Below are positions 9,482 to 52,504 of a stretch of DNA of 64,000 nt, piece after piece. Every line of letters begins with the position of its first letter. Position 1 is the first letter of the stretch. The DNA is from Chrysochromulina tobinii (Eukaryota), in contig JWZX01003377.1 of the NCBI GenBank assembly GCA_001275005.1, forward strand, positions 1 through 64,000. The letters are read 5' to 3'. The position numbers were made by a program, and so were the translations under genes. A model generated the notes under the pieces. It ran no database searches and was not told the DNA's origin. It was given only the letters and a program-made list of their open reading frames with translations.

Positions 9482-10702
9482 ATGAGACGCGCAATGGCGA
9501 CCTTGAGCCGGCGTATACAGGCGACGGACGCGCCATGCATCGTCACGATGCAGCAGATGATGCGTGGACGCACTGACATCCTCTCCCTCGCGCAAGGTAT
9601 CGTGCACTGGTCTCCGCCGCCAGAGGCCCTGGCGTCCGCAGCACAGCTCGTCGGAGAGCACAGCACGTCGCTCTACGGCGCTGACGACGGCCTGCCCGAG
9701 GTGCGTGCTGCGCTCAAGACGAAGCTCGCACAAGAGAATAGCATCACTGCTTCCGAGGTCATGGTCACCGCCGGCGCCAACCAAGCCTTCACCAACATCG
9801 TGCTCTCTCTGCTCGATGCCAGCGATGCGTGCGCCCTCTTCAAACCATACTACTTCAACCACCTCATGGCGCTGCAGATGACGGGCGCGGGTTCAGGCGC
9901 AGACATCTTCATCGCGCCCTCGACGACCGAGCTGCAGCCGGACGTGAACGCGCTGCGGGGCGAGATGCACCAGCGGAAGGCCCAGGGTCGGCCGCCCATC
10001 AAGCTCGTGACCGTGTCCAACCCTGGCAACCCGACCGGTGTGATGATCCCAAAGGCGCGGCTACTCGAGCTGAGCGCCGTGTGCGCCGAACACGGCGCGT
10101 GGCTCGTGATCGATAACACCTACGAGCATTTTGCGTATCCGAACGAGGCGCCCCACGAGTGCATCGAGGCGGCGCACATTGTCAACGTCTTCTCCTTCTC
10201 GAAGGCGTTCGGGATGATGGGCTGGCGCGTAGGCTACCTCGCGTACCCGCCGCCGCTCGCGCCCGAGCTGCTCAAAGCCCAAGATACGATCGTCATCTGC
10301 CCGTCCATCCTCTCGCAGCGCCTCGCGCTCGCCGCCATGGCGCCCGGCCGTTGCTGGGTTCACGAGCGCGTCAGCGGCCTCGCCGAGCAGAAGGCGCTCG
10401 TGCTCGATGCGCTCACGACGGCGCTCCCCGCGGGCTCGATCCAAGGCGGCTCCGGTGCCATCTACCTCTTTTGCAAGCTGCCCGTCGAGGACGACCTCGC
10501 CGCCGTGCGCTGGCTCACCAAGAAGCATAAGGTCGCGACGATCCCCGGCAGCGCGTGCGGCATGCCTGGGCACTTTCGGGTCTGCTACGCGAACCTGCCG
10601 CTTGAGTCGACACGCGTCGCGGCTGAGCGGTTGCGAGCAGGCCTCGCCGAGCTCGCCGCCGGTGGCGTCGACCTCTCAGATGAGGCTCTAGCACAGCTGT
10701 AG
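9482..10702 (+). CDS. PLP-dependent class I/II aminotransferase, ISS1/VAS1-like aromatic aminotransferase
   Basis: SLAQGIVHWSPP, VTAGANQAF, NPGNPTG, DNTYEHF and SFSKAFGMMGWRVGY (PLP lysine). Confidence 0.9.
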   Translation: MRRAMATLSRRIQATDAPCIVTMQQMMRGRTDILSLAQGIVHWSPPPEALASAAQLVGEHSTSLYGADDGLPEVRAALKTKLAQENSITASEVMVTAGANQAFTNIVLSLLDASDACALFKPYYFNHLMALQMTGAGSGADIFIAPSTTELQPDVNALRGEMHQRKAQGRPPIKLVTVSNPGNPTGVMIPKARLLELSAVCAEHGAWLVIDNTYEHFAYPNEAPHECIEAAHIVNVFSFSKAFGMMGWRVGYLAYPPPLAPELLKAQDTIVICPSILSQRLALAAMAPGRCWVHERVSGLAEQKALVLDALTTALPAGSIQGGSGAIYLFCKLPVEDDLAAVRWLTKKHKVATIPGSACGMPGHFRVCYANLPLESTRVAAERLRAGLAELAAGGVDLSDEALAQL

Positions 10703-10995
10703 CGTTGCTGATCTGGCTTCAAGTTCGCCGGGATGCTCAGATCCCTTGACCCTCAATACATGCAACTCCCTAGCCGAGGGCGAGCGCGAGCGCTCGATAC
10801 TCATGTAGGAATGATATTACATTCGCGTTTGTCGCTTTGTCCTGACTTCTGCGGGCTCGCTCGAGGCCAGCGCCATGTACAGCACGCCATGCTAAAGCCA
10901 TACGCAACGCAACGTCTCACAAGACCGGCGCCATGCCTAACTGAGATCGTCTGGTTCGTCGTTAGACGAAACTTGATGCAACGGTCTCGCTGCAA

Positions 10996-11004
10996 CCGAG
11001 AGAC
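10996..11004 (+). promoter_or_regulatory. Candidate nitrate-regulon element CCGAGAGAC upstream of CNX2
   Basis: Part of the 14-mer CAACCGAGAGACAG (10993-11006), which is identical to 28639-28652 in the NR/cyt b5 promoter. About 49 bp before ATG 11053. Confidence 0.6.
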
Positions 11005-11052
11005 AGGCCAAGGACTCGCTGTCCCCGACGGTATCGAAAAGCCGTCCGCCCC

Positions 11053-12450
11053 ATGCCGATAGCTGTCGCGAGGACAGCAATGATGCACATCGGGCGTGCT
11101 GGCTCTTCTGCGTGTCCGCTGGCCCGCATGCTCTCCACCAACGTCGCGGTCTCTCCACGTGTGCAGCTGCTGCGCCAACGCTTCGCCGTCGAGGCGCTGT
11201 CACCTCAGGACTTCATCGCAGGGAAGCCAATGCCCGTTGCTCCTGATCGGTCCTCCGCTCGCGCCGACAAGACAGCCACGCACGCCGACCACTCCGTCGC
11301 GCGGGCCGCCGTCGAGCTTCGGCGGCAGGACATTCCAGCCGCTGCGGCCACACCCTTCGTTGACCCGGCGCTCTCCGATCGCTTCATGCGGAACCACACG
11401 TACCTGCGCATCTCGCTCACGGAGCGCTGCTCGCTTCGCTGCGTGTACTGTATGCCCGAGAACGGCGTCGACCTGACGCCCGACGCGCGGCTCCTCCGCA
11501 CGGATGAGATGATGCGCATCGCGCGCCTCCTCGTCAATGCGGGCGTCAACAAGATCCGCCTGACCGGCGGAGAGCCTACGGTGAGGCGCGACCTGCCGGA
11601 GATCGTGGGCGGCTTGAACACACTGCGCCCAAACGGGCTGCGCCAGATTGCGCTCACGAGCAATGGCATCGCGCTGCCGCGCATGCTCCCATCCCTCGTG
11701 CTCAACGGCCTCGATCGCCTCAACATCTCGATCGATACTCTCGACCGCGACCGTTTCATCAAGATCACGCGCCGTGACGGGCTCCCGCGCGTGCTCGAGG
11801 CAATTGACCTCGCGCTCGAGCTCGGCCTCGCGCCCCTGAAGCTCAACTGCGTCCTTATGGCTGGCGTCAACGACGACGAGCTGCTCGCCCTCGCGGAGCT
11901 CTCCCGCGCTCGCCCGATCGACGTGCGCTTCATCGAGTACATGCCCTTTGACGGCAACAGGTGCGGAGACGCACGATGGGTCCCTCGGAGTGCCTCGAAA
12001 TGCCTCTGAGTCGCCTCTGATCGCCTCCGATTGCCATTGATGGCCTCCCTCATCAGGTGGAAGCACGAAAGCATGATGCCGTTTGAGGACATGCTTGGGC
12101 GGCTCAAACGCGAGCACCCGACGCTCGCGAAGCAGCCGACGCCCGCAAACGACGTGGCTGTCTCCTGGAAGCTCCCCGAGTCCGCCGGGTCAGTTTCGTT
12201 CATCGCGTCGATGACGCAACCGTTTTGTGGAAGCTGTAACCGAATTCGTTTAACTGCCGACGGGAGCCTCAAGGTGTGCCTCTTCGGCAGCCGTGAGGTG
12301 TCACTGCGCGACGCGATGCGCGAAGGCGCGACGGACGCGGAGCTGCTCGAGCTCGTGGGCGGCGCGCTCCAACGCAAGCACGCGGCGCATGCGGGCATGC
12401 ATGCGATCGCCGCGACGAAGAATCGTCCAATGACGACAATAGGTGGCTGA
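11053..12450 (+). CDS. CNX2: GTP 3',8-cyclase (molybdenum cofactor biosynthesis, MoaA/CNX2/MOCS1A), 2 exons: 11053-11960, 12057-12450
   Basis: Radical SAM motif YLRISLTERCSLRCVYC, LTGGEP, IEYMPFDGN, C-terminal CGSCNRIRLTADGSLKVCL and terminal IGG*. GT-AG intron 11961-12056 joins NR|WK in frame. Confidence 0.95.
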
Positions 12451-12716
12451 GACCTATCTGAGAGTGCGAGCGTGCGGTCTGTGTTGACCCTGCAGCTCAC
12501 CGGCATCGAACGGTCGGATAAAGGAGGTGACTCAAATGCGAGGGACTCTGAGTCCTCTGTGTGCTCATCTGATGAGCGATACATGTATCCGCTGGTGCCA
12601 TGCTCTAGATTGAGAAAAGCCAGTCTCTCACATCGGCTGTGGAATCAGAGCGACCGGTAGGTGGAGAGTTGAGACACTCTCGCTCGCGCATTTTCTCAGA
12701 GACACCCCCGACAAAC

Positions 12717-13643
12717 ATGCGCTACACCATCCTCGCCGCGTCGATCGCGGCCATGCACGCGCTCGACATGAGCTCGGCACCCTTTCTGCAGCGCCCGCAG
12801 CTGGGTGCGCATCGTGCGAGTATGCTTATCGCACAGGCAGGAGCTGTTGCAGCGCCACCGCTCCTCGCGCTGCCGCTCGACGGCTTCAATGGCGCCGTGG
12901 CTGCCGGCGAGAAGAAGGCGAACATGCCCGCCGATAAAATCTTTCATCTTGGTATCCTCTCCGGTGCTCACATCGGCTTCGGTGCCTTCCTCATGCTTTC
13001 GATCGGTGGTGCATGCCCTGGCCTCGCGGCAACCAACCCGGGGCTGCAGAAGATCGTCCTCGGCGCCTTTGGCCTGCCCTTCGGGCTGATGATGACCCTC
13101 CTCTCGGGCGGGGAGCTCTTCACCGGCAACACCGCCCTCGTAACGATGGCGCTTCTCGAGGGCAAGGCTACGATGGGCCAGCTCATCAAGTCATGGTCGG
13201 CCTCGTTTGCGGGCAACTTCGTCGGTTCCGTTCTGCTCGCCGTGCTCGTCTTTTACGGCAACACGCTTTCGGGCGGAGGCGCCTCGATCGCCGTCTCGGC
13301 CGCGAAGACGTCTCTTACGTTCACGCAGGCCTTCGTGCGCGGCGTCCTGTGCAACTGGCTCGTCACCATGGCCGTGTACCTCGCCTCGTTTGCGAAGGAT
13401 ACCGCGGGCAAGATGGTGCCGATCTGGTTCTGCATCTCTGCCTTCGTGGCGCTTGGGCTCGAGCACTCGATAGCGAACATGTTCATCATCCCACTCGGCA
13501 TCTTCTCTGGCGCTTCCGTCTCGTGGCCCACCTTCCTTTTGAAGAACCTCCTCCCCGTCACGTTGGGCAACACTTTCGGCGGCGCCGTCTGCGTGGCCCT
13601 CGCCTTCTGCATGGCGTACGGCAAGCTCAGCAAGAAGGAGTGA
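12717..13643 (+). CDS. NAR1: Formate/nitrite transporter (plastid nitrite transporter NAR1 family)
   Basis: FNT motifs LPFGL, GGELFTGN, GNFVGS, RGVLCNWLV, GLEHSIANMF, VTLGNTFGG. Signal-peptide-like leader. Confidence 0.92.
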   Translation: MRYTILAASIAAMHALDMSSAPFLQRPQLGAHRASMLIAQAGAVAAPPLLALPLDGFNGAVAAGEKKANMPADKIFHLGILSGAHIGFGAFLMLSIGGACPGLAATNPGLQKIVLGAFGLPFGLMMTLLSGGELFTGNTALVTMALLEGKATMGQLIKSWSASFAGNFVGSVLLAVLVFYGNTLSGGGASIAVSAAKTSLTFTQAFVRGVLCNWLVTMAVYLASFAKDTAGKMVPIWFCISAFVALGLEHSIANMFIIPLGIFSGASVSWPTFLLKNLLPVTLGNTFGGAVCVALAFCMAYGKLSKKE

Positions 13644-16961: not shown

Positions 16962-18210
16962 ATGGACGCCACCAAAACGAGCATGGTTGCCTCTACGAGC
17001 CAATACGCGATGACCACCGAGATGACCGGAACGACGCGCGAGAACGACGAGTGGCTGCGCGACGCCTTCGACGCGCTCGTCTCCGAGTCGGCCGAGCTGC
17101 CGCCCGATCAGCGTTTGTATCATGTACGACGCGGTCGACGAGTCCGAGGTGCGCGAGCTCATGGGGCTCGTCTTCCGCAAGCGGCTGGACGCACGGCGCA
17201 ACACGAAGCCCAAGAAATCCGACGACCAGCTCCTCGTCTGCACGCCCTTCAACCCGAACGGCTTCCATTTCGGCAAGATCCAGAACGAACGCGAGCGCAT
17301 CGTCAAGCTGCAGCTGAGCGCATCGTCAAGCTACAGCGTGTTGACCAACAAGTTCCCGCTCTTCCCGAGGCACATGCTGCTGACTGCCGACGCGCTCGTG
17401 CCGCAGCAGATGAACGCCACTCACCTGCGCGCCATCTGCGAGCTCCAGCGGAAGTCCAGCTTCTGCGCATATTTCAACTCGTGGTGTGCGAGCGCGTCCA
17501 TCAACCACTTCCACGTGCACCTGATCGACGAGTTCCCGCCGGTGACGTCGTTCCCGCTGATAGCGGGCCCGCTCGTGATGGGCGTGCGCTGCCTCCAGCC
17601 TGAGGGCTTCCCGGGCTTTTGCTACGTCTTCCCCAAGAGCGCCGCGTTACCGATCGTGGACACGATCATCTCGGCGATGCAGGTGGACAACCAACCGCAC
17701 AACTTGCTCTTCACGCCGCGGTTCATCTACGTGTTCCCCAAGCCGCACGTGCGCCCTGCGAGGTCTTTCGAGCTCTACCCCGAGACCGTCGGAGGGCCCG
17801 AGCTCATCGGCTCGTTCACAGTCTACAACCGTGAAGTGTACGACGGTCTGCAGCTCGAGCACATCGCTGAGCTGTGCCGCATCAATACGGCACCGCTGCC
17901 CTCGTGCGTGCTGCTCATGCCGGCGAGCTCGAGCTTGGGCGACGAGGCCGCGGTGGTGGGCACGGCGCGTGCGCACGACGACTTGAGTATGACCGAGACC
18001 GCCACGGTCAAGCGGCTAGGGGGCAGCATCCCAAACGTGAGCGTCACCACCGGCATGCTGCCCTCGCTCCCGCTGCAGCGCACACGGTCCGAGGGCATGC
18101 CCTCGATACCGTTGCAGCGCGATCGCTCGCTGCACATGGAAGACTGGCCGCAGGACCGACCGATTGCGCGCGCGCTCAACTCGAACATCAACAAGGACTC
18201 CATCGCATGA
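16962..18210 (+). CDS. HIT-superfamily nucleotide phosphorylase/hydrolase (GDP-hexose phosphorylase VTC2/GDPGP1-like or Ap4A phosphorylase-like), apparent +1 frameshift at ~17114
   Basis: PFNPNGFHFGKI, NKFPLFPRHMLL, YFNSWCASASINHFHVH. The 16962 frame joins the 17122 frame if one T is removed from cgtttgtatc. Alternatively the gene starts at ATG 17122. Confidence 0.72.
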
Positions 18211-18544
18211 GATTATCAGCCCCGACATGAGAACCGCTCCCTTTGCCCCCCTTGCTGGCTGAGCTCTTGAGGTCGTGAGCCCCTTAGCCACAACGCCGTC
18301 TTGCGCGCCCGTCGAGTTGCCGTGTATCGCTGCATACATGTTGTACTCGGATCGCTCGCCACACCTTCTGAGAGTAATTTGCTTACAGTTTCGCGACAGT
18401 GCACAGTGACCACAGTGTCCTCGCACATCTGTGTCGTGGCACGCGTGCGTGCGTCTAGATGGCGAGGTAGCAAATTACTTGGTAAGACTTTTAATGGGTT
18501 GTGGCCGAAAACGGCAAGTTCTCGGATTCGTCAATCGTGTCCCC

Positions 18545-18553
18545 GCGAGAGAC
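18545..18553 (+). promoter_or_regulatory. Candidate nitrate-regulon element GCGAGAGAC upstream of the orphan motif-repeat gene
   Basis: Same core as in the CNX2, NiR, NR and NRT2 promoters. About 48 bp before ATG 18601. Confidence 0.55.
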
Positions 18554-18600
18554 ACTGTGCCAGCGTCTCTGCATCATTGCAAACAAGAAAGCCACAGCTT

Positions 18601-19478
18601 ATGGCCGAGGCGTTGGCCGAGCGGGCTCTGACCGAGGTCGCGACCATGCCGAGGAATGACAGCTCCGTCTGGGACTGGCCAGCAGGCTCGGCGCCCCCCT
18701 CTCAGGGCGCCTCATTGCACAATGGCAACGTGTTTGTTCCAGACAAGCAGGCGTCGCCGCCAGTGTCCCAGGGCAACTCAAAGCACAAGGGCACCCAGTT
18801 CGGTCCCGACGGGCAGTTGCTGGTGTCGTCGATGAAGAAGTCCCCATCCACGCTGTGGTTCTGGGAGACCAAGGAGTCCTCTTTGCCCTCTTCGCGCAAC
18901 AACTCGGTGCGCAAGGGCACCGCTTTTTCTGAGAGTGTCTTTGGCGAGCACCCGGAGAGACCTTCGCGCAACAACTCGCTGCGCGGCGGTAACGCGTTTG
19001 CAGGGGGCATCGCCGAAGAAACTACCGCACCGACGAACGCACCGATGAAGCGCAACAGCTCCTTCTCCTTCCTGTGGAACTGGGGCAAGTATCGCCGGGA
19101 TGGTGAGGACGCCCCTGGCAAGGAGGCCGAGAGCGAGGATAGCGTCGCAGCTTCAAGGATTTCGGATGCTCGATTCGCGGCAGCTTCGAAGACTTTGGAT
19201 CCAGCCGTCATGCCTCCGAAAGGGATGATGAAGAACCGATCGATCGGTGAGCCGAACGGGACTCCCAAATCGCGCCTCTCCCGCCTCGCACACTGCACTC
19301 GCACACACAGCCGTGCACAGGTCATCATGACGCTTACTCACCCCTTGCACCGTCTGCATTCTTCTTGCATACTTCAGGCTCGTACATGTGGAGCTGGGAT
19401 GCGATGCGCGCCTCGCCACCTAGCTCGCCAGGTGCGTCTGGGCACGCAGGCGCGAAATTCGTCGTCAACGATGAGTGA
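18601..19478 (+). CDS. Orphan 248-aa protein with alternating basic-x-x-S...WxW and S-x-(H/R)-x-G-x-x-F motifs; 2 exons: 18601-19246, 19378-19478
   Basis: GT-AG intron 19247-19377 gives KNRSIG|SYMWSW...SGHAGAKFVVNDE*, which completes further copies of both motifs. This shows the 1170-aa ORF in the track is two genes read through. Confidence 0.75.
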
Positions 19479-19683
19479 CTGGCAGGCACCGGTGCGGGTC
19501 CATCACGTCGCGAAACCGAAATACCGTAACCGCCAACTCTATCCTATTCCCGGGGTAACGAGCACGCGTCGCGTCTCGCAAGAAGTCTTTCACGTGTGTC
19601 GCGTTAAAACATTCACAGAATTGTCGAAATTTATTTCGCGGAGTCGCTCCGCGGTGCGAGGCCACCGCGCTCTATCTACCGCA

Positions 19684-21813
19684 ATGAGTGGAGGCGATGC
19701 GCCCATACCGAGTAGTGAGCTCATTGAGCCGGATCTCCGCGCCATTATCTACCGCAATGACCTGGTTGCCTTGCGACGGCATTTGGCCGAAGTGCCGAGC
19801 AGCATTAGCAATGTCGACTCAAAAGGCCGCAACCTGCTCATGATCGCCGCGTCCGCAGGCGACGCGCGGCTCGAGGTGGTGAGGCTTCTGATTGCGCACC
19901 GTGCCGATGTCAACACGCAGCAGTACCAAGGTATCACGGCCCTTATGTTTGCAAGCATGACCGGCGCGAGCCTCGTGGCTATGCAGCTGCTCGCGGCCAA
20001 GGCCGACACCAAGATCCAGGATGGGCACGGGCTCACGGCGTCAGAATATGCGCGGCTCAAGGGGCACGACGATCTCGTGGCGCTGATGCATCAGCCTCTT
20101 CATATGCGTGCCAACGAGGTCGCTGCGAGCACCCGCCGCGCCACCAACTCATCGGACTCGTCGTCCTCGTCCTCGTCCTCAGCGGCACCGTGCACAGCTG
20201 CGTGTTCTGCTGCGGTCGTTGCGACGGCGAGTGCCTTCGCAAGGTCGAATTTTGTAGCACCGGGAGAGCCGGCGCAGCAGATGCTGCCCGCTGCGCTGCT
20301 CGAGGCGGCACAGGAGGGTGACTGCGACGCAGTGAGGGCATACATAGCATCCGGCGGGCGCGTGGACGCAGTAGACGAGGCATTGCAAGGCTCGATGCTG
20401 CACGCCGCGTGCTCGGCGGGGCACCAGCCGCTCGCTACGCTGCTACTCGCGGCGCGCGCAGCCGTTAATTTGGCCGACGTCAACGGCTGCACTGCCCTCT
20501 CTGTCGCGTGCTTTGCGATGGCGCACGGCTCGGTGCAACTGCTGCTCGATCATGCTGCCTCGGTCAACTGCCAGGATGCCGTCGGGCTGACGCCGCTGAT
20601 GGTGGCGGCACTCTCGGGCTCTGTCCAGCTCACGCGCAGCCTGCTCAGTGCGCACGCCTCGCGCGATCTACGCGACCAGCACGGCCAGACCGCGCTCATG
20701 TACGCACAGACTAAGTCGCATCTCGCCGTTGTGGCTTTGCTCAAGCGGCGGAGCTACAGCCGGGCTGGCGGCGGGCGCGTCGCCGAGCGACGCACGACGC
20801 CGGAGGAGGACGAGCTGGCGGCACGGGCTGCAGACGAGCTTCTCATCGAAGAGGAAGCTGCGGCGGCGCAGGGAGCCGCCGCCGCCGCACGCGCGAAGGC
20901 GAAGCGGCGAGCGAGGAAGAAGAGGCCGAGCGGACACGCTCCAAATGGCGTCGACAACGCTGACTCGAGCGAAGCTTCGTCGATCGACCCCTCTTCGGCT
21001 GAGCCGTCATTTAGCAGTGACGTGTCCGGGGCGGCATTCTCGGTGCCTGTGCGAGCTGACGAGTACGAATACAGCGGCGCCGACTTGTCTGTTCACAGTG
21101 ATCCCTCTTCTGGATCCTCTTCTGATCCTCTGATGAGCCTTCATCGACGAGACACTCTCCTTTCCCCATCCTCTTTGGATGCCGATCCACGTGGCATTGA
21201 GTCGTCTTCCCCTGCACAACGCCTGCACGAACCCCGCGACTCATGCGAGCCAGCGAGGCACGCTGCCTCGCTTGCTGCGCTCACAGGCGCATCTGCCGGA
21301 TCACCGTTGGCTTCGGTTGACCCGCGTTACTTATCTCTCTACTTGGCAGAGGCGGTGGCTGCCGAGGCGGTGGCTGCCGAGGCGGAGGCTGCCGAGGCGG
21401 CGGCTGCCGCGGAGTCTGTGGAGCAACTTGTTGAGAGCCCGACGTCAGTGGAGGACACACCACTGCCACTGCCACCGCCGCCGCCGCCGCCGTCGGTGCC
21501 GGGACCTGCAACAGCACCTTCGCCGCCGCCGCCACCGCCGAGCACACCACCACCACCGCCTTCCAGCGATGCAGCAGCTGCGTCCTCGCTTCAAGCGCAG
21601 CTTGAGGCGCTGCAGTTGCGGCTGCGCGAGCAAGAGGAGCGCATGCTGTGCGTCGTCTGCTTGGAGCGAACACGCTCGCACGTACTCCTGCCCTGCGGAC
21701 ACAAGTGTCTGTGCTCCAGCTGTGTGGATACGGTTCTCGGCACGGGCGCCGATGCAGTGTGCCCCCTGTGCCGCACGCCTATTCAAAAGGCGCAGCGGGT
21801 GTTCGACACGTGA
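19684..21813 (+). CDS. Ankyrin-repeat + C-terminal RING (C3HC4) E3 ubiquitin ligase
   Basis: Two ankyrin clusters (GRNLLMIAA, GITALMFAS, GCTALSVAC, GLTPLMVAA) and the RING CVVC...PCGHKCLCSSC...CPLCR. Confidence 0.85.
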   Translation: MSGGDAPIPSSELIEPDLRAIIYRNDLVALRRHLAEVPSSISNVDSKGRNLLMIAASAGDARLEVVRLLIAHRADVNTQQYQGITALMFASMTGASLVAMQLLAAKADTKIQDGHGLTASEYARLKGHDDLVALMHQPLHMRANEVAASTRRATNSSDSSSSSSSSAAPCTAACSAAVVATASAFARSNFVAPGEPAQQMLPAALLEAAQEGDCDAVRAYIASGGRVDAVDEALQGSMLHAACSAGHQPLATLLLAARAAVNLADVNGCTALSVACFAMAHGSVQLLLDHAASVNCQDAVGLTPLMVAALSGSVQLTRSLLSAHASRDLRDQHGQTALMYAQTKSHLAVVALLKRRSYSRAGGGRVAERRTTPEEDELAARAADELLIEEEAAAAQGAAAAARAKAKRRARKKRPSGHAPNGVDNADSSEASSIDPSSAEPSFSSDVSGAAFSVPVRADEYEYSGADLSVHSDPSSGSSSDPLMSLHRRDTLLSPSSLDADPRGIESSSPAQRLHEPRDSCEPARHAASLAALTGASAGSPLASVDPRYLSLYLAEAVAAEAVAAEAEAAEAAAAAESVEQLVESPTSVEDTPLPLPPPPPPPSVPGPATAPSPPPPPPSTPPPPPSSDAAAASSLQAQLEALQLRLREQEERMLCVVCLERTRSHVLLPCGHKCLCSSCVDTVLGTGADAVCPLCRTPIQKAQRVFDT

Positions 21814-22588
21814 GAAGCCTCCCCTGCCACGGCCGATCGTTCGCGATCCTGCCGCCCGAAACTGATCGCGCGCTTGGCGCGGGAGACCCCTGTCGTTACC
21901 CTGTCGTGTCTCCCCGAGCCGAACCGACGTCGACAAGTCCAAGTCGCATCGTCTCTAGTCTCCGATTATTTCCGGCGCCGGTAATTTGCTCCAATCCGGC
22001 GCGGGCGCCGCGCATGTACCTGATACAGATTTACGAGGAGCCGAGCTACCCGCGGTAAGAATATAAGGCCCGGGGGACCATGCCGGGGACGGCCGCGCGT
22101 GACTCGGTGGTCGCGAATCGCGTACTTCAATTTAGTTGTGGAATGATGAATGTATAATACAGCTGAACTTCTACAGCTGAACTGCTACGCAGCCCTCGTC
22201 GATCCCGAATCCGAGCGGAACACAATCATCGGGACAGGTGCCGCACACGCGACTCGCGTGCACGCACATGTCCATCCGATCCCCCCTCTTGTGCGGCCCA
22301 TGAACTGGGTTGAATGTGCCGGCAAAGTGGTTCCATCACTTCGACTGTCTCAGCAATGCCGGCACCCGAGCCGGCTCCGCATGGTCCTCTTTGTTCTACC
22401 TTCCCACAGAACGCCACCCATTGGCCACCGTCGAGACACGTCGACTAGACGGTCGTCACTCACATCTTGCCGAACGGCTTGCCGAAGAAGCCCTCCCTCC
22501 CTCGTTACGGCCTGCCTGGCTCGCGTCCGGCCATGCTACTCATGAGGTGCGTGTGGTAGTGCAACAGCGCGCCTGCGTAGCTCCTCCC

Positions 22589-24454
22589 CTACTCTGCATT
22601 GGCCGTCCACCACTGCTCACCAAGGCGGTCCCACTTGCTACCCTTGGGCGGCGCGAGCGGCTTGGTCCCCTCCTTCTTGCGCCCGCCAAACTTGGACACG
22701 ATGATCTTGACGAGCTCGGGCACGAGATCATCGTGATCGAGCGGGATGCCCTTCTTGTACGGCTCCAGAGAGAGGAAGGCGTGCTCACCAATTTTGCCGC
22801 CTACGAAGAGGTCGCAGCCAGGCACGGCCTTATCCTTCCCCTCGGCCTCGTTGAACTTCTTCGCGGGCGCACCCATGATACCTATGTCGGCCACCTGCAC
22901 CTGGCCGCACGAGTTCGGACAGCCGGTCCAGTGGATGCGGAGCGGGCGCGGCACCTCGACGAGCGCCTCTAGTTTGCGAGCGACCGCGTCCGCGTTATTC
23001 TTCGTCTCCACCAGCGCAAGTCCGCAGAACTGAGCGCCCGTGCACGAGACGGTGTGCCCGATGATGTGGCCCGGGTACACCGAGAACCGGCCAGCGTTCA
23101 GGGCCGGCTCGGCGAGGAGGGCATCGACACGCTCGACAGGCACGTTGGGCAGGATGATGTTCTGCTCGACCGTCAGTCGCAGCTCGCCAGCAGAGTACTC
23201 GTCCGCAAGCTTGGCGAGCGTGCGGCACTCGTCGGCTGAGAGGCGTCCGACGGGCACGTGCACGCCCACGCGCACGAGCGCCGGGTTGGGCTGCGCGTGC
23301 ACTCCGAGGAGCTCGCGCCGCTCGAAGAGCGTCTCCGGCTCGGGCTGCGCGCGCTGAGCCAGCGTCGCCAGCTTCGCGCCATTCTTGGCCATCTCCGCCA
23401 GCACAGCCTCTCTGAACTTCTCGACGCCATACTCCTCTACGAGCCACATGAGACGCGCCTTTTGACGGTCGCCACGCGCGCCCTCGTCGCGGAAGATGCG
23501 CAGGATCGCATCGCACAGCTGGACGGAATGTTCGACCTCCGCCGGCAGCCACAGATCCATAGGGATAGAGGCAGCCACGCGCTTGATACTCATGTACCCT
23601 CCGAGAACGACGTTGAAACCCATCGCACCCGTCTCCTTGTGCGCGACGGGCACGAGTCCGATGTCGTTGATATGCGTGTGCGCGTAGTCGTCGCGCGAGC
23701 CCGAGATGGCAATGTTAAACTTGCGAGGCAGATTTCCCCACTTGGGGTTGCCACGTGCTCCGGTCGCGCTGTCGATCGTGTACCAATCATTGAGGGCGTC
23801 ACAGTACGGGCGCGTGTCAACGAGCTCAGCGGGGTCGATGCCCGCGAGGGGCGAGCCGACCATGTTACGCACGTTGTCGAGTGCCGACTGGAACGAGGTC
23901 TGGTTGCGCACGTGCAGCCCGTCGATGATCTTGTCTGCGTCCTCGAGCGCGACGCCACGCAGCTGAATGTTCTGGCGCGTGGTGATGTCGACGACGCCGA
24001 TCTCGGGCCCATAGGGCTCGACGCACTCGGCGTAGAATCGCATCTGCTCGGCGGTGACGATGCCGTTAGGCGTCCGCAGGCGCATCATGAAGCGGCCTGG
24101 CGTGCGCTTTCCACGGTGCAGCAGACCAACCCACTTGAGGCGCTGGTCCATGTCATTCTTCTCAACCTCCTCCCACGTGAGCGTGCCCGCGCGGATGGCC
24201 TTGGCGATCTCGTAAACATCGGTGAACGCGGAGGTGCCGTCCTTGGCGAGCTTGAGTTTCTCAATCGGGTTGCCCGTTTTGGCACGCTCGATCGTCTCCT
24301 CGGACAGAAAGGAAGTGCCCGTCGGGACTTTGAGCGAGAGGGCGCGCGAACGGCCGACGGCCGGCGCCGGCGCGAATGCAAAGGCGTGGTCCAGCTGTAG
24401 CGCCGACGTGGCGTGCAGCGCCGCGACGGACGCGGCAAGGTGCGTGTAGCGCAT
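22589..24454 (-). CDS. NII1: Ferredoxin-nitrite reductase, plastid-targeted
   Basis: RLKWVGL, FMMRLRTPNG, DITTRQNIQLR, NLPRKFNIA, and siroheme/4Fe-4S ligands CTGAQFC and GCPNSCG. Signal peptide followed by an AFAFAP-type leader. Confidence 0.97.
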   Translation of the reverse strand: MRYTHLAASVAALHATSALQLDHAFAFAPAPAVGRSRALSLKVPTGTSFLSEETIERAKTGNPIEKLKLAKDGTSAFTDVYEIAKAIRAGTLTWEEVEKNDMDQRLKWVGLLHRGKRTPGRFMMRLRTPNGIVTAEQMRFYAECVEPYGPEIGVVDITTRQNIQLRGVALEDADKIIDGLHVRNQTSFQSALDNVRNMVGSPLAGIDPAELVDTRPYCDALNDWYTIDSATGARGNPKWGNLPRKFNIAISGSRDDYAHTHINDIGLVPVAHKETGAMGFNVVLGGYMSIKRVAASIPMDLWLPAEVEHSVQLCDAILRIFRDEGARGDRQKARLMWLVEEYGVEKFREAVLAEMAKNGAKLATLAQRAQPEPETLFERRELLGVHAQPNPALVRVGVHVPVGRLSADECRTLAKLADEYSAGELRLTVEQNIILPNVPVERVDALLAEPALNAGRFSVYPGHIIGHTVSCTGAQFCGLALVETKNNADAVARKLEALVEVPRPLRIHWTGCPNSCGQVQVADIGIMGAPAKKFNEAEGKDKAVPGCDLFVGGKIGEHAFLSLEPYKKGIPLDHDDLVPELVKIIVSKFGGRKKEGTKPLAPPKGSKWDRLGEQWWTANAE

Positions 24455-24509
24455 GATGACGTCGGAGTTTCAGGTGGTCCAAAGACGGACGGGGAGGACC
24501 GAAGAGCAT

Positions 24510-24518
24510 GTCTCTCGG
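24510..24518 (-). promoter_or_regulatory. Candidate nitrate-regulon element CCGAGAGAC upstream of NiR
   Basis: Reverse complement of gtctctcgg. The 12-mer GTCTCTCGGCAA (24510-24521) is identical to 30260-30271. About 56 bp before ATG 24454. Confidence 0.6.
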
Positions 24519-25186
24519 CAAAACTGCAAGTTTGCAGGTCTAGTTTGGCAGTCATCATCTTTTCGATGAATCGACTTGCCAAATCAAGCAACCAATCAAG
24601 CAATAGAGGACGGAGCTGTGTGTCCTGTGGGCGGAGCTATTAAGTTCGCACACTGAATGAACGATGAAGAGCGAACATAACATCACAGAGATAGGCACAG
24701 CACGAGACAACAATCATCCACAGACTCGAGAGTCACACACGTGGCCGTCCGCGAACGCGCGAGAGACGCCGAACTCGCCTCGGCCACATAGCACACACAT
24801 AGCACAGAGCTAGAACAGTCTTGCAGTCCTTTGTCCTCCCCATGCGTTCTCGCTCGCCTCGGCGAGCGCCTCTGCCTAGCTCTCTAGACCACACGAGCCC
24901 CCCAACTGGCTAGAGACGAGCACAACTAGCATCTCCACTCTAGACTGCCATCTGTGGCGCGCACGCCCCCATGCCATCTCCTACGCCCCTGCCCATGCCC
25001 CCCGCCTGCCGAGACGTACCTCACGCGAACTCGCCCCTGCTGTGTGCACCGTGTACGGCCGGCGGCCGGCGCCCACGACGGCGCCCATGAAGAGAGGCGC
25101 GCGCCTGATCTCGATCGTGATCGCCCCCACCCACACTTACCCCGCACTGGAAGCAGCAGTGCACTTTCGATGCGGCGTGTGGCCGG

Positions 25187-28100
25187 CTAGAAGCAGTGCA
25201 CGTTCGCGGCGACGTGGCCGGCCTTCTCGAGGTTCGGCTTGCATGCAAAGTTGATCATCGGAGGCGGGCCGCACATGAAGATCACCGTCTTCTCGGCCGG
25301 TTTCGGCAGGTGCGCCTCGACCATCTCCTGGTTAATGAAGCCAATCGAGTACTTCCATGGCTGCTCCTCTGGCTGCACGTCAAGGGTGTACCACACCTGC
25401 ATGCGATGCCATTTGTGACCGTCAGCGATCATCAGTGTGCAATCAGAGTGCAATCAGAGTGCAATCAGGGTGGACTCATCGGGCACTCGCGTGCACTCAG
25501 CTGGCACTCAGATGGCAACAAGAGGCGCCGCTCACCGACACGCGTGGATCCTTTGCGAGCTCATCGAGGAGATCCTTGCAGAGGATGTCGTCCACAGTCC
25601 GGTTGGCGAAGAGGATCGAGATCTTCAGATTGCGCGCCTTGTTGGCGACAAGCGCGTGGCACGTCTGGAGCACGGGGATGATGCCCGATGACGAAGCTCA
25701 TTAGTGGCAATCAAGTACGATCAAGGGCAATCACGGGAGATCGCACCTGGAGCACGGGTGTGATGCCCGAGCCGCCGGCGATGAAGCCGATCGTGTCGAA
25801 GGGTGTCTTATCCCCCGAGGGTGTGTGCGTGAAGGTCGTGAGCGAGTCGGTGTTGAAGATGCCCTTCGGATGCATGACCTCGGTGTTGAAGATGTACCTG
25901 TGGTGAGGGGGAGGCCATCCGTGTGAGGGGAGGCCATCCATGTGAGGGGGAGCCAGTCCGTGGCCATCAGCGGCTGATGAGGGAGGCAATCAGTGGCTGA
26001 TTAGGCAGGCAATCCGTGAGAGAGGGAGGCAGTCCGTGGCCATCAGCGGCACTCGAGAGCACTCAGCGGCCCTCAGCGGCAAAACTGGACGTACTCGCCG
26101 AGCGGCCCCTTGACGTCGATCGTGTCGCCCTCCTTGAGACCCTCGAGGATCTGCGTGAGCTTGCCTCCATCGGGGAAGCGCGGGTGCACGTTGGCAAAGT
26201 ACACCTTGATGACGAAGTCGACGTACCCCGCGCCGCAGCCCATGGGAGTGTACGCGCGCATCACGTTGGCGCCATCGGGCCCCTTGGCTCGAATGAAGAG
26301 GTGCTGCCCCACTGGCAGCCCGAGCTCATGCTCCTTGGAGGGCAGCTGGAAGCGGAAGACGCGCGTGTCGTGCGAGATCGTCTTCTTCCACTCCAGCGGC
26401 AGCGTCACGTACTTGGCCTTGTCGAGGGTGAGAGGCGGACCGGCGGGTGTGGCAGGCGGCGGAACGGGCAGCGCGCCGGCCGGCTTGGCGCCAGCGAGCT
26501 CGCCAATGTAGTACTCGTCGAGCAGCTTCCACGCCTTGCTGGAGTGCAGCGCCTCGAAGTCCTCTGTGCAGTCCTGGCCGGCGGTGATCAAGATAGAGGC
26601 TTCGCCGCCTGGATGCAGGGGCAGGTACTTGGTCGCGTCGTACACCTGATGAGGGACGCAATCAGACTAGAGCTCAGTGGCCATCCGAGGCACCCACGAG
26701 GCACTCACGAGGCACTCGCACCTTCCCCTTGACGACGATCCAAACGTCCTCCTTTGTATTGTGCTTGGCAACGTCCTCGAGGGAGTACGTCTTGGCGCTG
26801 GCCGGTGGCGCCGCCTTGGGCGCCTCCACGACGGCTGCGCCCGCCTTACCAAACACCCTCTCCTCGAACCAGCCGCCGAAGTTGCCTGGGCCCGCGAGGG
26901 TCGGGTGCTGGAATTTTAGGGCGGGCATCTTCGTCCTCGGGTCGATGATGCGGTGTACCTTGACGCGAAAGTAGGAGTTGTTCATCATGCCCATCACATT
27001 CCACGTGAGGGCCTCGGGCTGACGATTCATCGCCGCGTCCCAGCCGCGGCACAGGAGCTCGGGCGTCTCGCACTCGTAGATCTTGCTCAACGGCACCTCG
27101 AGCTTAAAGAAGACCCAGCACCAGTAACGGCCATACCTAATGAGGGAAGGTCATCGGAGGCACTCAGAGACCATTCCATGGTACTCGCGGCGCCGTGGTT
27201 GAGCACACGTACTCGGTAGGCGTCTCCGGATGTGTGAGCTCGGACAGAGTCCATGACTTGCCGCCGTCGATCGAGACCTCGACGCGGATCACCTTGCGCC
27301 CGCCGCCGGTGTAGCAGTACCCGCTGATCGGGTACGTCTGATCCGGCTTGCTCAAAGGAACGACTTCGAGATGGCCCGGGTAAGCGATGGCCGAGTTGAT
27401 GTTGAGCTCGTTAATGATGTAATCGGGCTTGTACCACCAGCCCTCGGCGTTGGCGATCTCGGCGGTCACGTGCTCGGGCAGCACGCGGTTGTCGTTGAAG
27501 TGGAAGAAGTTGTCGCTCTCCTCCGTGGTCACCTGATGAGGAATGCAATCAGAGGCTCAGACGCTCCGTGGCAGAGGCCATCCGAGGGTCATCAGAGGGT
27601 CAAAAACGGGCCCTCAGAGACGCAACCTGACACGTAATCACGCACCGTGATTTCGTTGAGCCATTTGATCATGCGACCGCCGATGTACCCGGGGATGATC
27701 AAGCGCAGCGGGTAGCCGTGATCAGGTGTGAGCCGCGCGCCGTTCTGCTCCCAGGCCAGGAGCACGTCGCACGCCGGATCCATCGCCGTGAAGTAGGTGA
27801 TCGAGGTGCCGTACCGGCCCTTCGGCATCTTCTCTACCCCGACGAAGCACACGTGGTTCGCGCCCTCCTTAGGCGTCTTGATGCCGCAGGCTTTGAGAAC
27901 GTCGCACAGACGCACGCCCTTCCACACCGAGGTGCCGACGCCCGAGGCGCCCCAGTTGAAGCCGATAGTCTGCGCGGTGAGATTCTCCTCCTTGCGCCGG
28001 TTACCCGCGCACACGAGCGTGATCGGCAGCTCGCGTGACGGCAGCTTAAGAAGGTCATCCATGGTGAACGTCGTCGGCTTGCCCACGAGGCCCGTGACGC

Positions 28101-28552
28101 TCAGCCGGTGCTCCTCCCACTTGATGTTCGGCACGGCGCCGTGGTTGCGCACGTAGTGCAGCCTGCATGCGGCGAGAGCCGACGGCCGACCACGCAACAA
28201 GCACGCTCAGTTAGAGCGGCGTGCCGATGAAGCGCATGCCCGGGCACGCAGAACGCACGCCCAGGCACGCAGAACGCACGGAAGTGGCGGGCAAGCTGGA
28301 ACGCCTTTGCAGGGCAGCAACGGGGCATAAAGCTGGCACTCACGCAGCAGGTGTGATGAAGCCGCACTCCATGAGCTTGGGCAGCGGCGGCTCGACGTTG
28401 AAGGGGTGCTTGCCGGTCAGGCGCACGAGATCAGGGTGGCGTGGGATCCAGTTATCGGGCGTGTCTTTGTCCCTCTCGTCAATATCCTTGAGATCGATCT
28501 CCGTGGAGTGGAGCGGCGATGGGATTGTCATAGATCCGACGCCGGACGACAT
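25187..28552 (-). CDS. NIA1: Assimilatory nitrate reductase (Moco, dimer, cyt b5, FAD and NAD(P)H domains), 8 exons, 833 aa
   Basis: Exons 28552-28344, 28162-27646, 27532-27213, 27136-26722, 26645-26095, 25897-25747, 25664-25536, 25396-25187. All introns are GT-AG and in frame (2502 nt total). Motifs RLTGKHPFN, LHYVRNHG, LVCAGNRRKE, DHGYPLR, YWCWVFF, WNVMGMMNN, HPGG, RAYTP, AGGSGITP, CGPPPM. Confidence 0.96.
25397..28343 (-). other. Seven NR introns (28343-28163, 27645-27533, 27212-27137, 26721-26646, 26094-25898, 25746-25665, 25535-25397); six share a degenerate CTGA(T/G)TGCC repeat signature
   Basis: Splice sites deduced from frame continuity. The shared 3' end ...(c)cctcatYag is seen in introns 2, 3 and 4 and also in the CNX2 intron. 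Confidence 0.8.
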
Positions 28553-28641
28553 GGCTCAGTGCTGAGATGGCAGCGATCTACGGGAAGAAGATGCCGATCC
28601 TTCGTTCGCGGGAGACAGCGGGAGAGAATTTCCTAATACAA

Positions 28642-28650
28642 CCGAGAGAC
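28642..28650 (+). promoter_or_regulatory. Candidate nitrate-regulon element CCGAGAGAC in the bidirectional NR / cytochrome b5 promoter
   Basis: The 14-mer CAACCGAGAGACAG is identical to the one upstream of CNX2. Confidence 0.6.
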
Positions 28651-28809
28651 AGAGGGACTGCGTTTCCAAACAAGGACAGCATGCCCACCAGAACTAAAGA
28701 GCGTCGTCGGGTGGTGGCGGCGGCGGAGTAGCAGAGAACATCTAAACAACCCCGACGGTACTCTCGTGAACTATTGACGAAGTCGGCGTCGGCGGCACAC
28801 GAGGCGCAA

Positions 28810-29229
28810 ATGGACGACGATGGCGCTGATCTCTCGGCTTACCCGGTTGATGCGCCGACGGACGTGACCGCTGCAGTGAGGGATGCACGAGCTTGCCTGA
28901 AAGCGTGGCCCACCTACACGCTCGACGACGTAAGCAAGCACAGGACCAAGGACGACTGCTGGATTGTTGTCAACGACTGCGTGATAGACATGACATCTCA
29001 CGTTCGTAACCACCCGGGATGGAGCAACGGCAGCAAGGTGTCGACTTTGCTCGCCATCTTGTCGGCCATGGGACAAGACTGTACCGATGATTTTGAGACG
29101 GTCCATTCTCAGCATGCAAAACGACAGCTTGTGGCCTTCAAGATTGGTGTGCTCGAGCAGCCAAATAAAGGTGTGCGCAGCATACGATACCGAACGTGGG
29201 AGGAGCTCGAGGCCGCAGGAGTGGTGTGA
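28810..29229 (+). CDS. Stand-alone cytochrome b5-like heme-binding protein
   Basis: YTLDDVSKHRTKDDCWIVV, HPGW and GQDCTDDFETVHS retain both axial histidines. Divergent from NR. Confidence 0.88.
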   Translation: MDDDGADLSAYPVDAPTDVTAAVRDARACLKAWPTYTLDDVSKHRTKDDCWIVVNDCVIDMTSHVRNHPGWSNGSKVSTLLAILSAMGQDCTDDFETVHSQHAKRQLVAFKIGVLEQPNKGVRSIRYRTWEELEAAGVV

Positions 29230-29274: not shown

Positions 29275-29480
29275 CACCTGCACCGTCGCCAACTGAAAGG
29301 TGAGGCACTGCGACTCGACCTTGTCAACTCGCCTGCAAATGGCTTGATCTCATCGCGGTCAACACGCGCATCACCGCCCGCGACCCGGCGATGGACTGCA
29401 TCCACTCGCACAAAGACGAGCTCCTCAGGGCGTGGCTGCGTACTCGAATCATCTCGTCTCCGTGCCTGCAGATGGCGGTT
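29275..29480 (+). pseudogene. Degenerate fragment of an NRT2 copy
   Basis: cgcgacccggcgatggactgcatccactcgcacaaagacgagctcctc closely matches NRT2 32311-32358. The flanks align with indels to about 32185-32410. Confidence 0.8.
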
Positions 29481-29885: not shown

Positions 29886-30194
29886 TCAACTCTTCTTCTT
29901 CGTCGTCGAACCCCCAGTCGTCGCCGCTCTGGCCTTCTTCTCTTCGGCCTCCCGCTCGCCTTTGGTTGACATCCGATCCGCCTCCTCGCGCAGCTTCTTC
30001 CGCCACTCCGAGTCCTCCATCTTTTCCGTGAGAAGAGACCCGATCCACATTGCCATAAGCATCCAAGTCGCTGTCTTTGCCCAAGCGCTGGAGTCCATGT
30101 GCGGGAACATCGCGAAGGTGATTGCCACCGGCATCAGCATCGACTTCAATGGTGGCATCCTTGTCGGCATGAGCGAGCGGATGAACGCTGCCAT
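29886..30194 (-). CDS. Orphan 102-aa small membrane protein, head-to-head with NRT2
   Basis: ATG-initiated ORF with two moderately hydrophobic segments, a charged tail and C-terminal KKKS. The shared promoter element lies upstream. Confidence 0.6.
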   Translation of the reverse strand: MAAFIRSLMPTRMPPLKSMLMPVAITFAMFPHMDSSAWAKTATWMLMAMWIGSLLTEKMEDSEWRKKLREEADRMSTKGEREAEEKKARAATTGGSTTKKKS

Positions 30195-30259
30195 CCTCGA
30201 TCGCGGTTGGACGACGAAGAGGCTCGCGGCACGAAAGGGGGACGCGCCCTCTCGCGCTA

Positions 30260-30268
30260 GTCTCTCGG
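30260..30268 (-). promoter_or_regulatory. Candidate nitrate-regulon element CCGAGAGAC upstream of the 102-aa orphan
   Basis: 12-mer identical to the NiR promoter copy. About 66 bp before ATG 30194. Confidence 0.58.
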
Positions 30269-30573
30269 CAATTCGTCACAACTTTCGGGAAAAGGACACA
30301 TGTTCACTCAACCTTTCCACGGTGTGTCTGTGTCTCAATAACTCACTCACTCACTCACTCAACTAGGAACCCTAATCATTAATCGCGTACTTCTTGTTAA
30401 ACGTGAGAACCACGACGCGAGTGTGATCGTAAAATAAGTTTGATCGCCGATCCTCAGCGTATGTGCGTGCAGAAATAATATGATGCACTTAAATGAAGTT
30501 TCGTTACAAAGTTGCCGCTGATTTCTATCCGCGGTCTTGGAACTCTCCTTTTTTGGTCGCTCTTTAGACGCAA

Positions 30574-30582
30574 GCGAGAGAC
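30574..30582 (+). promoter_or_regulatory. Candidate nitrate-regulon element GCGAGAGAC upstream of NRT2
   Basis: CAAGCGAGAGACAA (30571-30584) matches the CNX2/NR 14-mer at 12 of 14 positions. About 58 bp before ATG 30640. Confidence 0.6.
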
Positions 30583-30639
30583 AAACACACAGACCGTCCC
30601 CTCGTGAAGTCGGGCCTTTTGCATCGATCTGCTTCCGCC

Positions 30640-45131: not shown

Positions 45132-45314
45132 GTTGTTACCGGTATCGCAAACATGAAAGTTCTAAACGGCGGATGTGAGTGTCCGGAGTCTCGAAGGAGG
45201 GCGAACCACTGGCTGTGAATAGGAATTGCCCACACAGCTGACGAAGATGGCGAGAAGGTCGCCTCTTTGCCTTGCCGGCCATTGAGCACAGTGTGCCTGC
45301 CGACAATCTAAATC

Positions 45315-52463: not shown

Positions 52464-52504
<41 letters not shown>

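Follow-up and report, generated by a model that had tools for sequence, protein, structure and literature searches.

In the 64,000-nucleotide (nt) stretch of Chrysochromulina tobinii DNA analysed here (contig JWZX01003377.1, positions 1 to 64,000; hereafter, the window), a protein-coding gene is concealed among genes of nitrate assimilation. The window is eukaryotic in character, with a G+C content of ~63%. We found that positions 18601-19478 of the plus strand are a real two-exon gene, which is transcribed independently of its neighbours and spliced at 19247-19377. Sequence comparison places its product of 248 amino acids (aa) in a conserved and apparently undescribed family of repeat proteins with predicted disorder, and the gene shares a short box close to its transcription start with genes of nitrate assimilation and of molybdenum cofactor (Moco) synthesis. 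An earlier note on this DNA, made from the letters alone, had pointed to a hidden two-exon orphan at this place and read it as a scaffold or regulator of the pathway; our analysis bears out what it observed and supports part of its interpretation.

A spliced and independently transcribed gene

The gene is masked by a plus-strand frame that stays open from stop to stop over 1180 aa (18271-21813) and contains it. The masking had been recognized in the earlier note, although the length given there for the read-through frame, 1170 aa, differs from the measured one. The ATG at 18601 opens a stretch of 215 codons before the splice, and removal of the intron joins G to GC, yielding a spliced coding sequence of 747 nt that translates into 248 aa. 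The transcript and the parts of the gene are as follows.

18561..19645, plus strand: extent of the transcript in RNA contigs (5' ends at 18561-18569, 3' ends at 19611-19645; ~0.92-0.95 kb when spliced)
18601..19246, plus strand: coding part of exon 1 (ATG at 18601-18603; residues 1-215 and the first base of codon 216)
19247..19377, plus strand: intron of 131 nt, GT..AG (GTGAG...TTCAG), phase 1, splitting repeat unit 4 between ..RSIG and SYMWSW
19378..19478, plus strand: coding part of exon 2 (rest of codon 216 to residue 248; TGA at 19476-19478)

The stretch is contained in 21 public runs, of which 17 carry an RNA label. The RNA evidence consists of Logan contigs, not raw reads, from six runs (X1, X2, X3, X9, X10 and X14; six coded studies, possibly one campaign). 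All six runs examined showed the same joint, from 19245/6 to 19377/8, with 131 nt skipped between GT..AG ends, which is exactly the intron proposed earlier from the sequence. A minor contig of 189 nt that retains the intron was present in X1 and X2, at depths of 10.7 and 9.4 compared with 23.4 and 15.2 for the junction contig. RNA cover was zero at 18455-18556 and at 19628-19700 in 4/4 runs (X1, X2, X3 and X9), and the uncovered stretches at 18411-18556 and 19628-19700 were counted only jointly with agreeing contig ends. Because of the contig ends and the uncovered gaps, we consider the transcript to be separate from both the upstream DUF4922-like gene and the downstream ANK-RING gene (ATG at 19684). 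Fusion with the latter, which the earlier note had named as an outcome speaking against a gene in its own right, was not seen, as the 3' ends of the contigs and the second gap indicate.

The identical spliced sequence is contained in a database protein of 256 aa (P0003) and in a metatranscriptome contig (L001) that joins the window at 18565. This contig is itself chimeric, its nt 1-1277 matching nothing in the window. Three automatic database models (P0004, P0005 and P0006) read through the intron and conflict with one another.

The repeat unit and its protein family

Two motifs recur in the 248-aa protein. Motif A (WxW) occurs four times (W24, W86, W159 and W220) and motif B (S-x-[HRK]-x-G-x-x-F) five times (S38, S60, S102, S126 and S236); these counts and the flanks quoted in the earlier note were all recovered in the spliced product, where the copies are located as follows.

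18646..18678, plus strand: motif A1, MPRNDSSVWDW, residues 16-26 (R, S, W, D and W invariant in six homologs)
18712..18735, plus strand: motif B1, SLHNGNVF, residues 38-45
18778..18801, plus strand: motif B2, SKHKGTQF, residues 60-67
18832..18864, plus strand: motif A2, MKKSPSTLWFW, residues 78-88
18904..18927, plus strand: motif B3, SVRKGTAF, residues 102-109
18976..18999, plus strand: motif B4, SLRGGNAF, residues 126-133
19045..19083, plus strand: motif A3, MKRNSSFSFLWNW, residues 149-161 (the B partner found in homologs is lost here)
19225..19397, plus strand: motif A4, MMKNRSIG/SYMWSW, residues 209-222, split by the intron
19437..19460, plus strand: motif B5, SGHAGAKF, residues 236-243

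The fourth copy of motif A exists only after splicing, because it spans the intron, and the fifth copy of motif B, encoded in exon 2, is likewise present in the spliced product alone, as had been foreseen. In 100,000 composition-preserving shuffles, four WxW were reached once and five copies of motif B never, the maximum being two. The protein contains eight [RK]-x-x-S sites, and in 5 of the 9 motif copies a serine stands three residues after a basic residue.

A word-based search gave 10 matches, including models of the same species. The same motifs in the same order were found in P0008-P0012, which are 26-42% identical to the 248-aa protein. A six-sequence profile run against 1.84 billion cluster representatives recovered 79 proteins at E<=1e-3 (59 at <=1e-10 and 25 at <=1e-30), ranging from 87 to 472 aa in length. 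As 79 clusters match the family profile, the gene is not the orphan it had been taken for. The 17 clusters that were looked up come from JGI, ENA and Logan only, and the sole name attached to them is "hypothetical protein". Pfam-A searches at E<=1 assigned no family to P0003 and five homologs, the two noise matches lying far below the cut-offs. The same holds for 43 of 45 further members; one of the other two gave a sub-threshold chance match, and one (P0089) has DnaJ and ankyrin repeats outside the repeat part. In the latter, a weak family match (E 1.2e-7), B-type motifs follow these domains, and WDW occurs once. No description of such a protein was found in the literature, in a search that did not include the motif strings.

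Across the family, the two motifs form one bipartite unit of ~35 aa, in which a short linker, S/T-P-P, connects [M/L]-[R/K]-R-x-x-S-x-x-W-[D/N]-W to [S/T]-[R/P]-x-x-S-x-H-G-G-[N/S]-x-F. Most often, the serine of motif B follows the second W of WxW at a distance of 12, 14 or 16 residues. The two alternating series described in the earlier note are both present, but what repeats is a single bipartite unit. Among 191 strict B units, position -4 is S/T in 94%, position -3 is R in 64% and P in 26%, and the terminal F is kept in 86%, with a core of G-G and N/S. The six-sequence alignment contains 22 invariant columns, with R, S, W, D, W, S, S, S and G among them, all located in the motifs or in the S-P-P linker, and the four units keep their position between species. 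In the 248-aa protein itself, the B half of unit 3 is lost, two extra B copies are present, and the B copies are degenerate relative to the family consensus; S/T-P sites are located in the linker of the unit. In the homolog models P0041, P0044, P0045 and P0057, similarity is lost exactly at ..S-I/L/M-G/S.., the site of the intron in the 248-aa gene, and we therefore read these models as containing the same intron, left unspliced by the gene callers.

Some members have features of their own. A second repeated motif, G-P-D-L-S-T/A-F-Q/R, which is absent from the 248-aa protein, is found in P0078, P0079 and P0100. A subfamily (P0056, P0058 and P0067) begins with M-G-x-x-x-S/T and has the conserved C-terminal end ..P-W-A/G-I-K-x-K-Y/F-G-S/A-D-x-E-R-P-V.

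The AlphaFold2 model, built on a 22-sequence alignment, had a mean pLDDT of 50.6 and a pTM of 0.16, with no residue at pLDDT 90; it contained no helix or strand and only one turn of 3 residues. The composition of the protein is dominated by S/T/P/G/A/N/R/K/D/E/Q (77%), without Cys, with an isoelectric point of 8.8 and a grand average of hydropathy of -0.71. A profile search of the PDB returned nothing meaningful (best E 0.11, to the disordered tail of ATG9A), and a search of the ESM Atlas for look-alikes of P0003 gave no usable match. The protein is best described as a predicted disordered chain with conserved linear motifs, and the disorder proposed in the earlier note agrees with the model. 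Its N-terminus, MAEALAERALTEVATM, read by eye, has no hydrophobic signal peptide, from which we take the protein to be probably cytosolic.

The start-site box and the surrounding nitrate cluster

Four transcripts, those of the 248-aa gene, of the genes for nitrite reductase (NiR) and NRT2, and of a small membrane-like open reading frame (ORF), start 2-23 nt downstream of a box, CGAGAGACA, that is oriented like the gene; 5' ends derived from contigs are approximate, not exact. Counting both strands, the window contains nine copies of the corresponding 8-mer, CGAGAGAC, where 3.7+-2.0 would be expected, and nine copies were reached by 2 of 100 shuffles. These observations support the view that the nitrate and Moco genes have an element near their start sites in common, and that the 248-aa gene possesses it too. 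The coordinate from which the earlier note had counted the gene, 18545, is the first base of GCGAGAGACA, the form of the box found there. The copies at nitrate and Moco genes, at the 248-aa gene and at the small ORF are listed together with a variant at NAR1.

10997..11004, plus strand: box in the longer form CAACCGAGAGACAG, upstream of the coding part of the MoaA-like gene
12697-12704: one-mismatch variant CAGAGACA, at the NAR1 contig 5' end 12695
18545..18554, plus strand: box GCGAGAGACA, 7-15 nt upstream of the contig 5' ends of the 248-aa gene (18561-18569)
24510..24517, minus strand: box CCGAGAGACA (with flanking bases, 24518-24509), 2-21 nt upstream of the NiR contig 5' ends 24507, 24492 and 24488
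28643..28650, plus strand: box in the longer form CAACCGAGAGACAG, inverted in the 5' leader of the minus-strand nitrate reductase (NR) gene, ~90 nt before its ATG
30267-30260, minus strand: box 23 nt upstream of 30237, the end of one minus-strand contig over the ORF 29886-30275
30575..30582, plus strand: box GCGAGAGACA (with flanking bases, ending at 30583), ~18 nt upstream of the NRT2 contig 5' end at ~30601 (three runs; derived from record coordinates)

A scan of the window placed no copy ahead of the ANK-RING, DUF4922-like or exonuclease-domain genes. One further copy, at 45317-45324, stands 156 nt upstream, and in orientation, of an 842-aa ORF (42636-45161, minus strand) that matched no Pfam or NCBIfam family.

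An 11-nt inverted repeat (AGTAATTTGCT at 18373-18383 and AGCAAATTACT at 18469-18479) was considered as the box and then discarded, since three contigs of sister strains lack the 23-nt indel segment that includes one arm, and the second arm is altered there. In L003-L004 the 23-nt segment with the arm is absent and the other arm is changed, and L002 spans the indel only; the arm is an indel polymorphism, not a conserved element. The 9-nt core of the repeat, GCAAATTAC, allowing up to one mismatch, occurs 5 times against 4.0 expected. A third copy of this core (10/11 nt) is present at 21980-21990, between the 3' ends of the ANK-RING gene and NiR.

The 248-aa gene is placed between NAR1 and the NiR, NR and NRT2 genes, 5 kb from NR. 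The genes identified around it are listed below.

9482-10699: pyridoxal phosphate-dependent aminotransferase
10966-12006: MoaA-like radical-SAM gene (TIGR02666 at 1e-73, below the cut-off)
12609-13640: NAR1 formate/nitrite transporter
Minus strand: exonuclease-domain gene
17026-18207: DUF4922-like gene
19684-21810, plus strand: ANK-RING gene, adjacent to the 248-aa gene and on the same strand
22592-24469, minus strand: ferredoxin-type NiR, intronless in RNA contigs
24698-28723, minus strand: NR, with domain ORFs between 25190 and 28206 (Mo-binding, dimerisation, cytochrome b5, FAD and NAD domains)
28732-29226: cytochrome b5 ORF
29886-30275, minus strand: small membrane-like ORF that includes a hydrophobic stretch and whose transcription diverges from that of NRT2
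30640-32697, plus strand: NRT2 (ATG at ~30640), with two 5' introns

The TIGR02666 match of the MoaA-like gene falls below the cut-off because the ORF is partial. The NR gene contains at least 7 introns, whose joints read CT..AC on the plus strand. The small ORF at 29886-30275 matched no Pfam family, and NAR2 was not matched. A nitrate-assimilation cluster compatible with the window is reported for Chrysochromulina sp. in a published study (PMC6400420).

Contig depths in four runs were ~26-41 for the 248-aa gene, ~20-214 for NRT2 and 35-137 for NiR; because contig depth cannot rank genes, we draw no conclusion on co-expression from the apparently weaker variation of the 248-aa gene.

The RNA contigs also depart from the window at several positions. 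They are one base short at 17118, in the DUF4922-like ORF (3 runs), and at 28553, by the NR start codon (2 runs), which could reflect a strain difference or an error in the window assembly. At 24208, within NiR, T is replaced by A, and at 29394 G by A, in the RNA of 4/4 runs, either as a strain difference or through editing. NRT2 contigs of four runs jump back from 31999 to 29351, suggesting that the segment past 31999 is repeated at 29351-29431. Farther along, positions 45433-54945 of the plus strand form an open frame of 3171 codons in which only a C-terminal JmjC domain was recognised.

Possible functions of the protein

The reading that we tentatively place first, as a real possibility and not as the expected outcome, is that the 248-aa protein is a multivalent adaptor, switched by phosphorylation and co-regulated with nitrate assimilation via the shared box. 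The WxW and H-G-G-N-x-F motifs would bind partners, and phosphorylation of the adjoining R-x-x-S serines would gate this binding. Basophilic kinases of the CDPK/SnRK/AGC type would be the likely enzymes, given R/K at -3, and 14-3-3-type readers would be the leading candidates for binding the phosphorylated units. The box CGAGAGACA, shared with NiR and NRT2, would place the gene under common control with nitrate assimilation. A conserved basic-x-x-S beside an invariant aromatic motif, with S/T-P in the linker, is the layout of a phospho-switched linear-motif protein, and from it we infer serine phosphorylation and partner binding; a role in nitrogen metabolism is a further step of the same kind. 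The proposed link of the gene to nitrogen comes from two things, its position and the box.

Hinge 1 of plant NR carries a phospho-serine/14-3-3 switch at an R/K-x-x-pS/T-x-P-type site. The likeness to the motifs described here consists in a basic residue at -3 or -4, then Ser, then hydrophobics, as in the pattern of A2 (M-K-K-S-P-S-T-L-W-F-W), and both belong to a nitrate-pathway context. The difference is that the motifs reside on a separate disordered protein, not on NR, and have no Pro at +2. The hinge of the NR encoded in the window, between the Mo-co dimer and cytochrome b5 domains (GKAGAAVVEAPKAAPPASAKT, in context ..FGKAGAAVVEAPKAAPPASAKTYSLEDV..), has no basic-x-x-S-x-P site, in line with the statement of the earlier note that the plant 14-3-3 site is missing there.

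Several results weigh against the adaptor as proposed. An ELM-style 14-3-3 pattern has 5 matches in the 248-aa protein against 2.25+-1.4 in shuffled sequences (5 or more in 1257 of 20,000 shuffles) and a family-wide density of 1.74 against 1.08 per 100 aa; this counts in favour of the adaptor, but with p ~0.06 in the 248-aa protein the enrichment is weak. Pro at +2 follows 0 of its 9 A/B serines. The conservation of H-G-G-N-x-F and WxW exceeds what a 14-3-3 site needs, and the reader may therefore be something else. In P0005, which is 93% identical, 3 of 14 differences fall into the motifs, which make up 84 of 215 residues, so that motif avoidance is not significant (Fisher p 0.26). The cluster is broken by three non-nitrogen genes, the exonuclease-domain, DUF4922-like and ANK-RING genes, and position alone is therefore weak evidence of a nitrogen link. 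The box copies at 24760, 37810 and 45317, 3 of the 9, are not at known nitrogen genes. The nitrate promoter box of the earlier note stands as a box shared at transcript 5' ends, but it could be a general start-site element of the organism rather than a nitrate-specific one. A search for related loci with a 3-sequence alignment recovered seven, six from the same species or strain and one a 1.4-kb transcript-like contig; the genomic relatives recovered are near-identical strains only. Phosphorylation, binding and nitrogen-responsive expression are at this stage proposals.

The same interrupting genes and the same three stray box copies would also suit a reading of the protein as a general phospho-regulated disordered protein, its position and box being coincidental or the box a general promoter element. 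Such a protein, without a nitrogen link, could for example be a membrane-peripheral switch in which the Trp motifs dip into the membrane and phosphoserines release them. Seven of the 79 family members start with M-G-x-x-x-S/T, a typical N-myristoylation pattern, and basic residues flank the WxW motifs. The 248-aa protein, in contrast, starts with MAEALAE, so that it differs from myristoyl switches of the MARCKS kind, and a membrane anchor does not require the H-G-G-N-x-F core. Moreover, 6 of the 9 box copies are at nitrogen-pathway or Moco genes or at the 248-aa gene. We regard this alternative as unlikely, although it deserves to be kept in view. WxW-type Trp motifs are also known as ligands of the appendage and MHD domains of vesicle coats, the known examples lying in acidic stretches. 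What they have in common with the motif described here is a pair of tryptophans separated by one residue within a disordered region; the flank in the present case is, however, basic and contains Ser, and an H-G-G-N-x-F module accompanies the motif.

An improbable alternative is a sticker-and-spacer scaffold that would condense a cytosolic oligomeric enzyme, for which NR, 5 kb away, is the obvious candidate. The analogy is with PYCO1 of diatoms and EPYC1 of Chlamydomonas, disordered tandem-repeat proteins with conserved short motifs and multivalent binding; PYCO1 is reported to bind Rubisco via KWSP motifs that recur along its chain and in which the Trp is indispensable (PMC10288592). The 248-aa protein likewise has tandem conserved aromatic motifs in a disordered chain. 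PYCO1 and EPYC1, however, are plastid proteins with transit peptides, whereas the 248-aa protein has, by reading, no plastid-type leader, which speaks against Rubisco as a target; it also has other motifs, with serines placed for basophilic kinases at most copies. The protein has no more than four units, prion-like low-complexity spacers were not noticed in it, and binding is a proposal by analogy.

The motif B of the family brings to mind the tails of ammonium transporters (AMT). The plant AMT1 tail has the pattern (S/T)-x-H-G-G-x-A-Y, and the E. coli amtB product ends in ..EREGLDVNSHGENAYNA, i.e. ..NSHGENAYNA. Set against the AmtB end ..LDVNSHGENAYNA, with its N-S-H-G-E-N-A-Y, the family S-x-H-G-G-N-A-F agrees at 5 of 6 positions of the core (H-G-G-N-A-F) if F is counted for Y; the copies in the window are degenerate. 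The likeness therefore concerns a core H-G-[G/E]-x-A-[Y/F] after S/T, and the short pattern noted earlier is real as such, but nothing in it indicates homology or a shared function; we treat it as a lead suggested by sequence. In plant AMT1 the tail is a phospho-switch: a 2026 structure of AtAMT1;1 is reported to show the tail region around T460 packed against intracellular loops of positive charge, an arrangement that the phosphomimic T460D loosens (PMC13745463).

One bold version of this idea, which we consider quite improbable, makes the family a trans-acting nitrogen regulator: a cytosolic, multiply phosphorylated decoy or adaptor with several AMT-tail-like modules, each coupled to WxW as a Trp clamp, and with expression driven by a start-site box common to NiR, NRT2, NR and a Moco gene. 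If this were true, one disordered protein would couple nitrate assimilation to ammonium transport or to the control of NR, in contrast to the sites built into the enzymes of plants. Still more doubtful is the narrower proposal of a tail mimic, in which the S-x-H-G-G-N-A-F modules would act in trans as kinase or phosphatase decoys or dock on the cytosolic loops of the transporter. The packing of the AtAMT1;1 tail on such loops and the place of the 248-aa gene among nitrogen genes would suit it. The match, however, is a post hoc finding of 6 residues only; of the five B copies, one keeps H-x-G together with an A-[FY]-like end, and two have R for H. None of the 22 large ORFs in the window encodes an AMT. 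The 248-aa protein and its homologs have no transporter domain (no Pfam match), and the family motif is repeated 1-7 times per protein and always paired with WxW, a half without counterpart in AMT tails.

We consider it highly improbable that the protein serves the neighbouring ANK-RING E3 ligase as substrate or adaptor, its repeated motifs being bound by the ankyrin repeats of the ligase. That gene is adjacent and on the same strand, and in the distant family match P0089 a single protein combines DnaJ and ankyrin repeats with the B-type motifs and a WDW. The transcripts, however, are separate, the box is missing upstream of the ANK-RING gene, and P0089 is a single weak match, the ankyrin part of which resembles the neighbour in a generic way only (40% over 89 aa). 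Finally, a transcribed low-complexity ORF or annotation artefact without a functional protein, to which the disagreement among the read-through models P0004, P0005 and P0006 might point, is hardly credible in view of the 79 family clusters, the motifs, order and intron position kept down to 26-42% identity, and the clean splice that restores a conserved C-terminal unit.

To our knowledge, how the use of nitrate and ammonium is controlled after translation is well understood for plants and hardly at all for the complex-plastid algae that dominate much of aquatic primary production, and we know of no cis-element of a nitrate regulon in this lineage. The automatic gene models hide the family, since all database models of the species read through the intron or fuse frames. 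Being conserved, well expressed, unannotated, located in the nitrate cluster, sharing the box and carrying a kinase-type serine at most motif copies, the 248-aa gene is therefore a concrete candidate to test. The box, in turn, is a candidate cis-element of a nitrate regulon in the lineage of this alga. For algal nitrogen biology, the candidate gene and the box are both directly testable.

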